From positions 1 to 64,000 of the IMG/VR virus record IMGVR_UViG_3300020055_000012: a stretch of DNA of 64,000 bases; one strand, given 5' to 3'. The stretch comes from a virus. How positions within the stretch are numbered: position 1 is the stretch's first letter; each line of letters begins with the position of its first letter. This document shows, piece after piece, positions 47,590 to 55,435 of the stretch. The notes under the pieces were generated by a model. The model was not told the origin of the DNA, searched no databases, and was given only the letters and a program-made list of their open reading frames with translations. Both the position numbers and the translations under genes were made by a program.

Positions 47590-47664
47590 ATGAAAAAGTA
47601 TAACTCAATATCAATAATTAGAAGGATAAGAATAGAGTCTTGTCCCTGTCTAGATATTGTATAA
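47590..47664 (+). CDS. Putative attenuator leader peptide 1 (MKKYNSISIIRRIRIESCPCLDIV)
   Basis: Read by hand. Codons 7-15 are ATA TCA ATA ATT AGA AGG ATA AGA ATA. It precedes a terminator and the AUA/AGA-reading tRNAs. Confidence 0.75.
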   Translation: MKKYNSISIIRRIRIESCPCLDIV

Positions 47665-47685
47665 ATTTGAGTTATCAAAAATACT

Positions 47686-47722
47686 AAAAGGTCTGGGCAG
47701 AATTGTCTAGACCTTTTTTTTT
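47686..47722 (+). terminator. Attenuator terminator upstream of tRNA cluster 1
   Basis: AAAAGGTCTGGGCA gaat TGTCTAGACCTTTTTTTT. Confidence 0.8.
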
Positions 47723-47756
47723 GTCGTAAATATTAGCTGTTTTTGCGACAAAAAAC

Positions 47757-47828
47757 ACTCTAGTAGCTCAGTGGTCAGAGCACCAATCTTATAAGTTGGA
47801 GGTGAGGGTTCAATCCCCTCCTAGAGTA
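47757..47828 (+). tRNA. tRNA-Ile(UAU)
   Basis: ACTCTAG/CTAGAGT acceptor stem; CCAAT-CTTATAA-GTTGG anticodon arm. Confidence 0.88.
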
Positions 47829-47925
47829 CAAGAAGAAAAAAATAATTTTATTTTTTGTAATAAAGTTATATATTTGTCGTTAGATAAGAGAAGGTTCTTT
47901 GAAATGTTGGAAAAGTAATTTAAAT

Positions 47926-48209
47926 GGACGGGTAGCTCAGCTGGATAGAGCATCTGCCTTTAAGCGTAAATAGGAGCTAAATAGTGGAAACGCTATTGTG
48001 CACAAACCCTCAAATTCGGTGAAGCCTTTAAAATGGTAATACCGAGCCAAGCCCAAACGGGAAGGTGTAGAGACTTGACGGGGGTTGTCTAAGTCACTTT
48101 GTGATATGATTGAGATAAAGTCCAGACCACAAACGAATTTTCGGTAGTGAAAACTATAGTTGGTAAGCTAAGCAGACGGTCGAAGGTTCGAATCCTTCCT
48201 CGTTCACCA
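47926..48209 (+). tRNA. tRNA-Arg(UCU) interrupted by a group I intron
   Basis: The 5' half GGACGGG...TCTGC CTT joins the 3' half CTAA GCAGA...CTCGTTC ACCA, giving the spliced loop CTTCTAA. Confidence 0.88.
47961..48167 (+). ncRNA. Group I self-splicing intron (207 nt, no ORF)
   Basis: The exon ends in U and the intron ends in G. Core elements: AAATTCGGTGAA, AATACCGAGCCAAG, GTAGAGACT, GATAAAGTCC. Confidence 0.88.
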
Positions 48210-48212
48210 TTA

Positions 48213-48286
48213 GGTCCTATAACTCAGTTGGTTAGAGTATCTGACTCATAATCAGAAAGTCCTTGGTTCGAGCCCAAGTGGGACCA
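48213..48286 (+). tRNA. tRNA(CAU), probably Ile2 (lysidine-modified, AUA-reading)
   Basis: GGTCCTA/TGGGACC acceptor with C4-G69 and C5-G68; TCTGA-CTCATAA-TCAGA arm; resembles Ile2 more than Met. Confidence 0.7.
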
Positions 48287-48315
48287 CAAATTTTAGAAGA
48301 TTATAGAAGGCTTTT

Positions 48316-48798
48316 TTAAAGTTTTTCAATTACTTTATCTAAGTCTTCTTCTTCTAAATCATAAAATGATTTTTTTGTATTAGCGTTTCTTGTTAGAATA
48401 AGTTCTTCATTATCCTTGTCTATATACCATATTTTTTTATTTAATTTTATGGTTGGAAAATCTAAAGCTAATAAGTTAATTTTTCTATTAGAACTTATTG
48501 CATCTTCTATTTCTTTTTTAGTTATTCCATAAGCTCTTGATAAGAATCTATATAAGTCAAACCTTCCCTTACCTCCTTTGTGAATAGTGTAACATTCTTC
48601 AGATTTATCTTTTGGCGGACATAATTTTTGCCCATCTTTTGCTTTTTTAAATTCAACATCTGGGAAGTTTTTTTTAATCCACTTGATTGCTTTTTCCATT
48701 TCTTTAGCATCTCCGTGACTACCTCCTGCTTCTTCTACGTTAGAATAAACTTCTTTTATAACTTGTCTAACTAAATATCTTATTTCTATTTTATCCAT
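48316..48798 (-). CDS. Hypothetical protein, possibly with a HicA-like fold
   Basis: ORF track; an alpha-beta-beta-beta-alpha-like segment follows the EIRYLVRQVIKE leader. Confidence 0.45.
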   Translation of the reverse strand: MDKIEIRYLVRQVIKEVYSNVEEAGGSHGDAKEMEKAIKWIKKNFPDVEFKKAKDGQKLCPPKDKSEECYTIHKGGKGRFDLYRFLSRAYGITKKEIEDAISSNRKINLLALDFPTIKLNKKIWYIDKDNEELILTRNANTKKSFYDLEEEDLDKVIEKL

Positions 48799-48847
48799 AT
48801 TTTTATATGTATTTTAATAAATATTTAAAAATTTATATATTTGCAAT

Positions 48848-49240
48848 ATGAAAAAAGAAGAAATAGAAAAAATATTATCAAAAATATCAATGGCACCATC
48901 ATGTATAGATATGGGGTGGAGATGGAGAGTTACAAGCTTAGGAAAATATGGAAACACTTTCGCACTATCTTTTCAGAGGCCAGATACAAACACTGGATTA
49001 GTTGGTACTGGTTATGGCAGAGAATGGTTTGTTCCTAACGATGCAACAGAAAAATTTATAGTAATGACTGCGTGGCTTGCAATAGAATTAATATTAAGAC
49101 ATGAAGCTATGGAAGCTTTTCATTATGATAATGCAAGAATATTAGACCCACACAAGTCTATTGGCGAATTAGCCCACCCAGATAAGTTAGGAGAAACAGC
49201 CAAAACTAAATTGCAATTTCCAGGAATAGAAAAAGTTTAA
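48848..49240 (+). CDS. Hypothetical phage protein
   Basis: ORF track; GYGREW and HEAMEAFHY...ILDPH motifs; TATATTTG box upstream. Confidence 0.55.
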   Translation: MKKEEIEKILSKISMAPSCIDMGWRWRVTSLGKYGNTFALSFQRPDTNTGLVGTGYGREWFVPNDATEKFIVMTAWLAIELILRHEAMEAFHYDNARILDPHKSIGELAHPDKLGETAKTKLQFPGIEKV

Positions 49241-49368
49241 CCTTTAAAATTTGTAACATTTTTAAAAAAAATACGTTATAAGTATTGAATATTAAAAATA
49301 AAATTTTATATTCGTATCAGATTTAAAAAAATATATTATATTTAATAATAATAAAAATTAAAAAAATT

Positions 49369-49491
49369 TTGCAACTTACAAGTACACATATCGCAAATTA
49401 TTGTTCCAATTCGAAAGTCTTTGGAAATACAACGATGAGTCATGATGATAATAAATCAGGATTTAAAAGGGTGTGCTATGATGTAAGTTAA
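49369..49491 (+). CDS. Putative attenuator leader peptide 2 (MQLTSTHIANYCSNSKVFGNTTMSHDDNKSGFKRVCYDVS)
   Basis: Read by hand with a TTG start. It is enriched in S, N, K, V, F, M, H and D, and is followed by a terminator. Confidence 0.7.
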   Translation: MQLTSTHIANYCSNSKVFGNTTMSHDDNKSGFKRVCYDVS

Positions 49492-49518
49492 GCGCATAAA
49501 ATAACTAAAGTTATACAC

Positions 49519-49550
49519 ACCCGAACAAGTAAAGTTGTTCGGGTTTTTTT
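49519..49550 (+). terminator. Attenuator terminator upstream of tRNA cluster 2
   Basis: ACCCGAACAA gtaaag TTGTTCGGGT TTTTTT. Confidence 0.85.
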
Positions 49551-49568
49551 ATGCTTAAAAATTGAAAA

Positions 49569-50087
49569 ATGGAATTTAAAGGAAAATATAAAGATTGGTA
49601 CGATAGATTAGTAAAAGCAAATTATGGAGCTAGGTACGGTAAAGAACAAAATGAAAGAATTGTAAAACTAGTAAAAATTTATATTGAGTGGGAAGAAGAA
49701 GAGTTTTGGAAAAATAAAAGAGAAAAGCTTGAAAAGGATATAAAAGATAAAGATAAGATTGATAAAATCTTAGAGTATGAAAGAAAAAGGTATAACGGTG
49801 AAGAGAGAGTAAAAGGTATCGAATGGACTAGAGAGAGAGATTTGGAATTGTTAAAAAAAGCAATTCAAAAACAAGAACTAGAAGATGGAGCTTGGTACGA
49901 TTGTGAAGAAGATGCAAAAAATGTTGCAAGATTTGGCGGAATAGTACAATGGAATGAAAAAAGACAACAGTTCCGAGCTCCAGGTCAACAACAATTTGGT
50001 GCAGATGGATATCTTGACCATTGGGCAGATGTTATAGATGAAGGATATGCAGGATTTGTTCCAATGTGGAAAGTGAAAAAAGAATGA
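49569..50087 (+). CDS. Hypothetical protein at the head of the cluster-2 operon
   Basis: ORF track. Confidence 0.55.
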   Translation: MEFKGKYKDWYDRLVKANYGARYGKEQNERIVKLVKIYIEWEEEEFWKNKREKLEKDIKDKDKIDKILEYERKRYNGEERVKGIEWTRERDLELLKKAIQKQELEDGAWYDCEEDAKNVARFGGIVQWNEKRQQFRAPGQQQFGADGYLDHWADVIDEGYAGFVPMWKVKKE

Positions 50088-54617: not shown

Positions 54618-54629
54618 ATGCTTAAATTT

Positions 54630-54706
54630 GGGGAATTAGCTCAGCTGGCTAGAGCACTTGATTTGCATTCAAGAGGTCATCGGTTCGACTCCGTTATTCT
54701 CCACCA
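54630..54706 (+). tRNA. tRNA-Ala(UGC)
   Basis: GGGGAAT/ATTCTCC with G3:U70; CTTGA-TTTGCAT-TCAAG; CCA encoded. Confidence 0.92.
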
Positions 54707-54708
54707 AA

Positions 54709-54791
54709 GGAAGTGTTGAGCAATTGGTTGGCTCGCCTGTCTGTAAAACAGGTTCTTTTTAGACTTGAAGGTTCGAATCCTTCCACTTCCA
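54709..54791 (+). tRNA. tRNA-Tyr(GUA)
   Basis: GGAAGTG/CACTTCC; CCTGT-CTGTAAA-ACAGG; long variable region. Confidence 0.9.
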
Positions 54792-54797
54792 CAAAAA

Positions 54798-54869
54798 GCA
54801 AGATGTAGCTTAACTGGTAAAGCATCTGCCTTCCAAGCAGAGGACGGAGTTCGAATCTCACATCTTGCT
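54798..54869 (+). tRNA. tRNA-Gly(UCC), with an apparently 8-bp acceptor stem
   Basis: GCAAGATG/CATCTTGC; TCTGC-CTTCCAA-GCAGA; U73. Confidence 0.8.
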
Positions 54870-54951
54870 CTCTAGAGTAGTTTGCTGATTTAAGGTCTTA
54901 TAATCAGACGGGATGGTCACCTCTGTTTGAAGTGCAGTTAATAACCGTAAT

Positions 54952-55024
54952 ACGTCTGTAGTTCAATTGGTAGAATGACGGTCTCCAAAACCGTTGGTTG
55001 TAAGTTCGAATCTTACCAGACGTG
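54952..55024 (+). tRNA. tRNA-Trp(CCA)
   Basis: ACGTCTG/CAGACGT; ACGGT-CTCCAAA-ACCGT. Confidence 0.92.
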
Positions 55025-55030
55025 CAAATT

Positions 55031-55103
55031 CGGGGTGTGGCGCAGTTGGTAGCGCGGGGCGTTTGGGACGCTCAGGTCGTCAGTTCGAGTCTGGCTACCC
55101 CGA
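55031..55103 (+). tRNA. tRNA-Pro(UGG)
   Basis: CGGGGTG/TACCCCG; GGGCG-TTTGGGA-CGCTC. Confidence 0.92.
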
Positions 55104-55108
55104 CATAT

Positions 55109-55182
55109 ACGCCTATAGCTCAGCTGGTTAGAGCATTTGACTGATACTCAAAAGGTCAGTGGTTCAAATCCACTTAGGCGTA
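55109..55182 (+). tRNA. tRNA-Ile(GAU)
   Basis: ACGCCTA/TAGGCGT; TTTGA-CTGATAC-TCAAA. Confidence 0.9.
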
Positions 55183-55191
55183 CAAATAAAT

Positions 55192-55265
55192 GCTCCTATA
55201 GCTCAATTGAATAGAGCGCCAAACTACGGATTTGGAGGTTGAAAGTTTGAATCTTTCTGGGAGTA
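55192..55265 (+). tRNA. tRNA-Arg(ACG)
   Basis: GCTCCTA/TGGGAGT; CCAAA-CTACGGA-TTTGG. Confidence 0.88.
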
Positions 55266-55276
55266 CATATAATAAT

Positions 55277-55351
55277 GCCTCATTAGCTCAGATGGCTGAG
55301 AGCGACTGATTTGTACTCAGTAGGTCGGGGGTTCGAGTCCCTCATGAGGCT
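55277..55351 (+). tRNA. tRNA-Thr(UGU)
   Basis: GCCTCAT/ATGAGGC; ACTGA-TTTGTAC-TCAGT. Confidence 0.92.
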
Positions 55352-55360
55352 CTAAAATAT

Positions 55361-55435
55361 GGGCATATGACCGAGTGGTTTAGGTGCTGGATTGCAAACC
55401 CAGATACGCTAGTTCAAATCTAGCTATGCCCTCCA
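55361..55435 (+). tRNA. tRNA-Cys(GCA)
   Basis: GGGCATA/TATGCCC followed by TCCA; GCA anticodon; U73. Confidence 0.9.

Follow-up and report, generated by a model that had tools for sequence, protein, structure and literature searches.

Candidate codon-matched leader-peptide attenuators at the head of tRNA gene blocks in a giant-phage fragment

Introduction

What controls the transcription of the tRNA genes that large phages carry? The question is raised by a 64,000-nucleotide stretch of DNA (the window), which comprises the first 64 kb of the 79.4-kb IMG/VR virus record IMGVR_UViG_3300020055_000012. The record has a G+C content of 30% and is estimated to be about 24% complete; therefore, it is a fragment of a very large (giant), uncultured phage. 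No relative was found among GenBank phages beyond matches of tRNA size. The tRNA genes of the window fall in three blocks on the + strand. An earlier note on this DNA proposed that each block is gated by an attenuator composed of a short leader open reading frame (ORF) and an intrinsic terminator, with the leader codons matched to the tRNAs encoded downstream.

The control of tRNA genes is, in textbook terms, exerted at the promoter, through growth rate and the stringent response. The known targets of leader-peptide attenuation are amino-acid operons and a single synthetase operon. Here, we describe the three leader units of the window, L1, L2, and L3, together with their counterparts on other contigs, which are designated by L and a three-digit number. 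Leader codons follow the tRNA content of the arrays behind them. We consider it probable, from sequence comparison and folding, that the units work as attenuators of the trp/his/thr type, in which transcription is coupled to translation, and that each heads a tRNA operon. More of a tRNA set is probably made when ribosomes read its codons slowly.

Layout of the leader units

Every tRNA block is headed by the same order of elements: a promoter-like site is followed by a short ORF, within which lies an antiterminator strand, and then by a strong intrinsic terminator. The short ORF and terminator that the earlier note had placed ahead of each cluster are present at L1, L2, and L3, whose terminators are the top three terminator-like sites of the 10 kb scanned. 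A Bacteroidota-type promoter motif (TTG, 17–21 nucleotides (nt), and TAnnTTTG or a near variant) is located 9–120 nt upstream of each leader ORF. A motif scan identified no such motif between any of the three terminators and its first tRNA. The gap between terminator and tRNA is 32 nt in L1, 12 nt in L3, and 17 nt in the L2 unit of the relative L196. The 12 nt that separate the T-run of L3 from tRNA-Ala leave no space for a promoter, and neither do the 17 nt in L196. All elements of the units and the tRNA genes behind them are on the + strand.

The L1 unit begins with the promoter-like site P1 (47552..47580, TTG-N18-TATATTTA, Bacteroidota -33/-7 type), 9 nt upstream of the L1 start codon. The L1 leader (47590..47664) has 24 amino acids (aa) and a sensing core, ISIIRRIRI, encoded by four ATA, one ATT, two AGA, and one AGG codons. 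The 5' strand of the antiterminator (47646..47655) pairs in constrained folds with positions 47691-47700 in the 5' arm of the terminator. The terminator (47686-47717, or 47686..47725 with the T-run) is formed by a 14-bp stem and a run of nine T. The L1 homologue in L016/L022 also has 24 aa and retains three ATA and three AGA/AGG codons. In L016, the antiterminator pairing is kept, with one G-U pair changed to G-C; there, the P1 box precedes an ORF of about 60 aa, and L1 lies 8 nt behind that ORF. A hairpin inside L1 (47624-47645, GGATAAGA ... TCTTGTCC) spans the AGG-ATA-AGA sensing codons and is kept in L016 with one G-C pair changed to G-U. It may be a pause or synchronising hairpin.

The promoter-like site P2 of the L2 unit (49285..49314) was identified by the motif scan as TTG-N19-TATATTCG, with TATATTTG or TACATTTG in relatives. 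The L2 leader (49369..49491) can be read as 18 aa from ATG 49435, with the sensing tract SHDDNKSGFK, or as 40 aa from TTG 49369. Segment 2 of L2 is the motif GGGTGTG (49469..49475), the 5' strand of the antiterminator, and pairs in folding with CACACCC at 49516-49522 (segment 3). The terminator (49519-49544, or 49519..49551 with the T-run) is composed of a 10-bp stem and a run of seven T. Homologues of L2 are present in L003/L008, L004/L022, L190, and L196. The terminator stem covaries in L003, where CAA/TTG is replaced by TCA/TGA in a compensatory manner.

The L3 unit has the promoter-like site P3 (54372..54401, TTG-N19-TATATTTG), a strict match to the consensus in the motif scan. The L3 leader (54453..54563) has 36 aa, the sensing core TYRNIEPTITGTCPAYGW, and orthologues in L165, L195, and L175. 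Its GGGTGTG (54530..54536) is predicted by folding to pair with CACACCC at 54585-54591. The terminator (54588-54611, or 54588..54618 with the T-run) has a 9-bp stem and a run of seven T.

By their sequences, L2 and L3 are paralogous copies of one design. They have in common ACATATCGCAA, GGGTGTG, and ACACACCCG, the last of which leads into the terminator and the sequence flanking it. The complement of GGGTGTG is CACACCC, whose final bases open the terminator stem. The common motifs are in different reading frames in the two leaders and therefore conserved as nucleotides. The terminator and antiterminator sequences of L1 are unrelated to those of L2 and L3; the layout is identical. The predicted pairings of L1, L2, and L3 agree with the earlier proposal that a segment near the 3' end of each ORF is complementary to the 5' arm of the terminator.

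Leader codons and array tRNAs

Relatives of the units were found through neighboring proteins and structure-like DNA patterns, and the matches were then filtered. The L2/L3 design occurs in 25 distinct copies in uncultured AT-rich phages, with six leader types (A, B, L2, L3, C, and D).

The match between leader codons and array tRNAs was scored against the phage's own codon usage. It amounts to 7 of 17 codons in L1 (background 0.09, p = 5e-4), 9 of 10 in L2 (background 0.36, p = 8e-4), and, in L3, 12 of 24 when scored strictly or 16 of 24 when relaxed (p about 5e-4 to 7.5e-4). In every leader type, the amino acids served by the array behind it are overrepresented relative to the phage amino-acid background (binomial p 4e-4 to 2.5e-7), and leaders score negative against arrays of the complementary kind. 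When eight leader/array units were permuted exactly, none of the 40,320 arrangements exceeded the 117 matches observed (P = 5e-5).

The composition of individual types illustrates the match. Of the 23 residues that precede GGGTGTG in type C, 19 are T, A, R, P, V, or G, and the array encodes Pro, Thr, Arg, Ala, Val, and Gly tRNAs. Type D has L, M, T, S, R, H, A, P, Q, or G at 23 of 24 residues, and its array contains Gln, His, Pro, Ala, Ser, Met, Gly, Leu, Thr, and Arg. The Asp, Val, and Met tRNAs of the window are located behind L2; D, V, and M codons are present in L2, and the sensing tract of L3 has none. The L200/L036 genome has the same three tRNAs behind leader B, with D, V, and M codons in B and none in leader A. 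Covariation of leaders and arrays in relatives, the test that the earlier note had named, is thus positive, both in the permutation and in the way the D, V, and M codons follow their tRNAs.

The match is concentrated in one part of the ORF. It reaches 81% in the core, compared with 33% in codons 2-4 and 34% in GGGTGTG and the codons behind it. When each type is represented once, 104 of 134 residues match upstream of GGGTGTG versus 24 of 60 after it (Fisher p = 6e-7). The matched zone is the zone where simulated ribosome stalls leave the antiterminator free.

The leaders also distinguish isoacceptors. In the phage, ATA makes up 62% of Ile codons and AGA 81% of Arg codons, and CGC is used about 0%. 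L3, whose block contains Ile(GAU) and Arg(ACG), has two ATT codons and one CGC despite this bias, and L1 has four ATA and three AGA/AGG codons ahead of a block with Ile(UAU) and Arg(UCU). The split between L1 and L3 (Fisher p = 0.024) bears out the isoacceptor-level match that had been proposed. Similarly, leader B of L183 contains AGG and CGC, and its array encodes Arg(CCU) and Arg(ACG). The proposal that each leader matches its own cluster and not the others holds at the codon level; it fails at the amino-acid level, where L1 fits block 3 about as well as its own (10 versus 8 of 17).

Reading frames and predicted folds

The leaders of types A, B, L3, C, and D vary in length and keep their frame. 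Nine different distances between the ATG and GGGTGTG (62, 71, 74, 77, 80, 101, 104, 107, and 113 nt) are all 2 mod 3, and the stop codon is located 25-34 nt past GGGTGTG in the same frame. Under independent insertions and deletions (indels), such frame keeping would arise by chance about once in several thousand trials. Orthologous leaders differ mainly by swaps within the amino-acid set of their own array. The alignment of 22 leaders (A2) is sound for segment 2, segment 3, and the terminator, and segment 1 is not aligned across types.

In thermodynamic folds, full-length leaders form the terminator, which is mostly kept in the presence of a stalled ribosome. Transcripts truncated before the 3' arm of the terminator served as a proxy for co-transcriptional folding, and the switch is seen in these folds only. 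Truncated transcripts of the L2/L3 types are predicted to fold into the antiterminator, which is lost when a ribosome, modeled as a 29-nt mask, has its A site positioned from about five codons before segment 2 to about six after it. The stop codon of L2 and L3 lies within the antiterminator loop. A ribosome parked there should, we infer, block closure of the antiterminator stem, which the fold itself does not show. In constrained folds of L1, a ribosome stalled at codons 2-15 permits the pairing, whereas one at the stop codon masks the antiterminator strand directly. All ATA, AGA, and AGG codons of L1 are at positions where a stall frees the antiterminator strand. Candidate pairings between segments 1 and 2, corresponding to a protector hairpin, occur at a constant position, with one compensatory change between L3 and L165.

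Proposed mechanism

We propose that the Bacteroidota-type promoter starts a transcript whose first feature is the short ORF. The middle of the ORF would serve as a checklist of the codons read by the tRNAs encoded downstream. When all of the corresponding aminoacyl-tRNAs are plentiful, the ribosome would pass segment 2 (GGGTGTG in L2 and L3, CTGTCTAGAT in L1) and reach the stop codon, which lies just past segment 2 in L1 and inside the antiterminator loop in L2 and L3. With segment 2 covered or the loop occupied, the terminator hairpin would form, and the transcript would end before the tRNAs. When any codon of the checklist is read slowly, the ribosome would stall upstream and leave segment 2 free, immediately on its emergence, to pair with segment 3 (CACACCC; in L1, the 5' arm of the terminator). 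This pairing would prevent formation of the terminator and allow RNA polymerase to enter the tRNA genes. Overall, the supply of charged tRNA would be under negative feedback with multiple inputs and codon resolution. Working promoters, translation of the ORFs, coupling of transcription and translation in the host, and stalling-dependent read-through are what we infer for this scheme.

Recurrence in other phages

The relatives with the L2/L3 design include some whose helicase is just 47% identical. In 22 of the 22 copies with at least 0.4 kb of downstream sequence, tRNA genes start 12 bases to about 0.9 kb past the terminator, sometimes with short ORFs inserted in between. The initial search pattern, ACATATCGCAA...GGGTGTG, yielded chance matches only, save two related contigs.

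A survey of upstream regions that did not use the motif identified a different leader, which has five K codons alternating between AAA and AAG and its own terminator, unlike that of the GGGTGTG type. The lysines form the run KKKKK in L117/L204 and are spread over residues 6-12 in L027. This Lys-run leader precedes three to five tRNA-Lys(UUU/CUU) genes (L027 ~15270-15470, L117 ~1215-1415, L204 ~5990-6190) and splits the type-A block in all three contigs.

The leader-terminator design was also observed before tRNA genes on contigs binned as metagenome-assembled genomes (MAGs) of Bacteroidia/Bacteroidota, with an upstream G+C content of 0.37-0.45. L221 contains 22 tRNA genes in 6.5 kb, L219 and L232 nine each, and L224 and L226 one or two in the stretch examined. 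These contigs may be mis-binned phages or tRNA islands.

Loose-pattern matches in GC-rich bacterial families were set aside. One of these families is an Acidobacteria element composed of a sigma-70-like promoter, a Thr/Lys/Arg-rich short ORF, GGGTGTG, ACACCCG, and a long terminator, and another is a GC-rich RNA family. The Acidobacteria element is present in L217, L225, L228, L231, L233, and about 15 soil metagenome loci (e.g., L159 and L174), directly before a gene with an aspartate-semialdehyde dehydrogenase-like (asd-like) N-terminus. It is possibly a Thr/Lys attenuator.

tRNA blocks and their boundaries

ARAGORN called 18 tRNA genes in the window and Rfam 19. The additional Rfam tRNA (50526-50598) is a tRNA-Lys because its anticodon is UUU. 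Two further tRNAs, Arg(UCU) and Ser(UGA)-like, were read from the sequence. The 79-kb record has no Leu, Gln, or Glu tRNAs, which may be located elsewhere in the genome.

Block 1 is composed of tRNA-Ile(UAU) (47757..47829; ARAGORN, Rfam), tRNA-Arg(UCU) (47926..48209), and a tRNA with the anticodon CAU, either Met or Ile2 (48213..48287; ARAGORN, Rfam). A group I intron (about 47961-48167) splits the anticodon loop of tRNA-Arg(UCU). The Rfam family RF00028 (group I intron) scores 60.9 bits at 47950-48145, above the gathering score; the intron was missed in scans of the whole window and detected when 331 bases were searched alone. The homologues in L004 and L015, called Arg(tct), are intron-free.

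The stretch at 47860..47925, downstream of the L1 terminator and directly upstream of tRNA-Arg(UCU), contains the -7 box TATATTTG and a leader of about 50-60 nt (repeat family D18). It is nearly identical in L015, L017, L018, L029, and L031, all of which are without L1 and tRNA-Ile(UAU). In sequence terms, this stretch is a second, putative promoter for tRNA-Arg(UCU) and tRNA-Met(CAU). Because the relatives without L1 and tRNA-Ile(UAU) keep it, tRNA-Ile(UAU) would be the only tRNA of block 1 surely gated by L1. The claim of the earlier note that each leader gates a cluster does not hold for block 1, whose Arg(UCU) and Met(CAU) sit behind their own conserved promoter-like box.

Block 2 (50114..51260; ARAGORN, Rfam, and sequence reading) encodes Ser(UGA)-like, a 70-aa ORF, Ser(GCU), Lys(UUU), His, Asp, Asn, Val, Phe, and Met(CAU). 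The Ser(UGA)-like gene (50114-50199) has a homologue in L022 that ARAGORN calls Ser(tga). Contrary to the earlier note, L2 is not directly ahead of its array: a 172-aa ORF (49569..50087), tRNA-Ser(UGA), and the 70-aa ORF (50222-50434) intervene between the terminator and the rest of the block. No Pfam family matched the 172-aa ORF, which is 95% and 51% identical in two relatives. It is absent from L196, where tRNA-Ser(UGA) starts 17 nt past the T-run of L2; therefore, the ORF is an insertion into the junction of attenuator and array in the window. It would be co-regulated with the tRNAs.

Block 3 (54630..55435; ARAGORN, Rfam) encodes Ala, Tyr, Gly, Trp, Pro, Ile(GAU), Arg(ACG), Thr, and Cys. 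It is closed by a terminator identified in the terminator scan at 55435-55464.

Block 2 ends with an HNH endonuclease gene (51481-51984; Pfam HNH_5, 2.5e-17), located just ahead of a terminator at 51985-52011. In relatives, many HNH-like ORFs and introns are located between tRNA genes and account for most array gaps. Elsewhere in the window, 300-nt and 247-nt segments (families D1 and D2) occur in three tandem copies about 2 kb apart with 68-78% identity (16477-21142), probably a triplicated gene. Positions 59513-59582 contain a 12-nt periodic repeat with at least four overlapping copies of 79-91% identity (family D10).

Alternative explanations

Several observations weigh against the assignment of the units as leader-peptide attenuators. 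The L3 leader contains N, K, E, and L codons without a tRNA in its block, and the leader of L022 keeps Val and Phe codons ahead of an array without those tRNAs. The start codon of L2 is ambiguous; ATG 49435 is not kept in L022, and the conserved start is the TTG. The pairing of GGGTGTG with CACACCC was part of the search pattern, so its conservation in the 25 copies is not independent evidence. The tRNA sets of relatives are ARAGORN calls on partial contigs and thus incomplete. L1 was found in two lineages only, a search for more L1-type copies having given none beyond two contigs, and two of the three tRNAs of its block have their own promoter. Close relatives have tRNA-Arg/Met or tRNA-Glu behind a bare promoter, without a leader; therefore, the leader device is optional. 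The energies of the duplexes between segments 1 and 2 are no better than those of shuffled sequences in 14 of 15 copies. Finally, a truncated leader without a ribosome folds into the antiterminator, which predicts read-through and not termination.

The core of the earlier proposal, codon-matched leader-peptide attenuators acting as multi-input OR gates, is upheld as the probable reading by the covariation in relatives and the geometry of predicted ribosome positions. We consider it highly improbable that the terminators merely end upstream units, the ORFs are chance or encode small proteins, the codon match is coincidental, and the tRNAs are expressed from other promoters. This would agree with the position of L1 behind the helicase gene with no terminator in between, its place 8 nt behind the ORF of about 60 aa in L016, the separate promoter of tRNA-Arg/Met, and the abundance of short ORFs in AT-rich DNA (the 10 kb scanned contain 130 with 20 aa or more). 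However, the permutation result, the restriction of the match to one part of the ORF, and the nine indel-length variants that are all in frame speak against it. Moreover, the promoter-like sites are upstream of each leader and not between terminator and tRNA, the gap is just 12-17 nt in L3 and L196, and the pattern recurs in distant phages whose arrays are sorted in other ways.

Untranslated RNA switches with incidental ORFs, which might sense tRNA in the manner of a T-box or bind an antiterminator protein of the phage, would explain why the motifs common to L2 and L3, such as ACATATCGCAA and GGGTGTG, are conserved as nucleotides in different frames. They would also explain why 28 nt at the 5' end of L2 are identical in a relative whose neighboring protein is only 51% identical. 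This explanation has very little probability in our judgment, since frame keeping, a stop codon at a fixed place behind segment 2, and substitutions within the amino-acid set are unexpected for untranslated RNA. Rfam searches gave no family for the leaders, even with E relaxed to 10 at the L2 and L3 loci, and a T-box reads one specifier codon, not a tract of 10-30 matched codons. The related idea that L2 and L3 are paralogous non-coding RNAs was dropped, as relatives have frame-kept ORFs that track their arrays. Ribosome stalling also exposes RNA to Rho and RNases, and leader translation could thus act through Rho-dependent polarity or through processing or stability of the tRNA precursor. The weakness of the expected pairing between segments 1 and 2 of a classic attenuator speaks for such an output, which we nevertheless consider quite improbable: each unit has a strong terminator with 7-9 T and a complementary strand switched by ribosome position, which would be needless for Rho or processing.

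In the reading of the earlier note, which refines the role of the attenuators and leaves their mechanism in place, the trigger is host defense: replacement tRNAs would be supplied when an anticodon nuclease (PrrC, RloC, PARIS-type, or similar) depletes host tRNA. Judging from the folds, the circuit would react to the loss of any cognate tRNA, since this would stall the ribosome on the leader. Nucleases frequently target tRNA-Lys, which in relatives has its own Lys-run leader and three to five gene copies. That phage tRNAs counter tRNA-targeting defenses is argued in one publication (PMC10264068). Nevertheless, a defense trigger seems unlikely. The checklists together span 17 of 20 amino acids, beyond the known nuclease targets, and no defense or anti-defense genes are linked to the units here. 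The sequence cannot tell nuclease damage from high demand or amino-acid shortage. The predicted read-through of an untranslated leader misfits an alarm that is off until attack, and it is at odds with the earlier claim that transcription occurs only when a tRNA is cleaved or uncharged. Since read-through is predicted whenever the leader is untranslated, the design looks like a shut-off at sufficient supply rather than an off-by-default alarm. Plain supply feedback is the simpler reading. A shortage of charged tRNA from any cause would give the same signal. We regard as doubtful the broader scenario in which giant phages of Bacteroidota keep their tRNA arrays under closed-loop, codon-resolved control, each array sorted by amino acid behind a checklist leader, with the circuit doubling as a counter-defense sensor that restores just those tRNA species lost to a host anticodon nuclease, and with the switch taken from amino-acid attenuators of the host.

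Comparison with known systems

Leader-peptide logic is apparently turned on the tRNAs themselves in these units, with up to about ten inputs per switch. The full-text literature covered, which leaves out most subscription journals, contained no description of leader-peptide control or attenuators on tRNA genes. If true, supply feedback would explain why large phages sort their tRNA genes into amino-acid-defined blocks, and how tRNA output is matched to phage codon demand without a protein regulator. As the leaders would list the monitored codons, they would offer a direct handle on the purpose of phage tRNAs, be it codon supply or defense evasion. The units would also provide synthetic biology with compact, programmable multi-codon sensors of translation speed.

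No match to the Rfam amino-acid leader families (His, Thr, Trp, Leu, etc.) was found in the window at the gathering score, at E up to 1 in 47000-56000, or at E up to 10 at the L2 and L3 loci. The T-box (RF00230) likewise had no match in the window, in 47000-56000, or at the L2 and L3 loci. The T-box resembles the phage units in that it senses tRNA status and uses a terminator/antiterminator switch before translation-related genes. However, it binds one uncharged tRNA through one specifier codon without translation, whereas the phage units have a frame-kept ORF with many matched codons.

Among the closest known systems are the enterobacterial attenuators of amino-acid operons, namely the multivalent thrL (Thr and Ile), ilvL and ivbL (Ile, Leu, and Val), and the single-input trpL, hisL, pheL, and leuL. 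As proposed for the phage units, they have a short translated leader rich in regulatory codons, and an antiterminator and an intrinsic terminator compete with each other. Which of the two folds forms depends on where the ribosome stands, and stalling at any one of the regulatory codons leads to read-through, which constitutes an OR gate. The enterobacterial leaders contain runs of one to three amino acids and a protector hairpin between segments 1 and 2, whereas the phage leaders cover up to about ten amino acids, mostly with one to three codons each, and have no convincing protector. The enterobacterial attenuators are cellular and control biosynthetic enzymes, while the present units are in phages of Bacteroidota-type hosts and would control tRNA genes, so that the loop closes on tRNA supply itself. 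In the pheM-pheST operon of Escherichia coli, a leader peptide controls phenylalanyl-tRNA synthetase in response to charged tRNA. Attenuation thus acts on the translation apparatus there as well, but with a single amino acid as input, a protein-coding target, and a cellular genome.

A bacterial counterpart is located at 2450-2700 of L215, a Balneolia MAG. It has GGGTGTG at the end of an ORF, ACACCCG at the foot of a terminator, and a T-run, a motif that is partly imposed by the search pattern. The leader contains three CGG codons and is followed by ORFs resembling ornithine carbamoyltransferase, ArgG, and ArgH, recognized by eye from their N-termini. Unlike the phage units, it has a single amino acid as input, precedes biosynthetic genes, and is part of a bacterial chromosome. 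L215 likely carries an arginine leader-peptide attenuator built on the same chassis. The likeness of the leaders of tRNA arrays and of this arginine operon suggests that the phages share the chassis with attenuators of their host clade.

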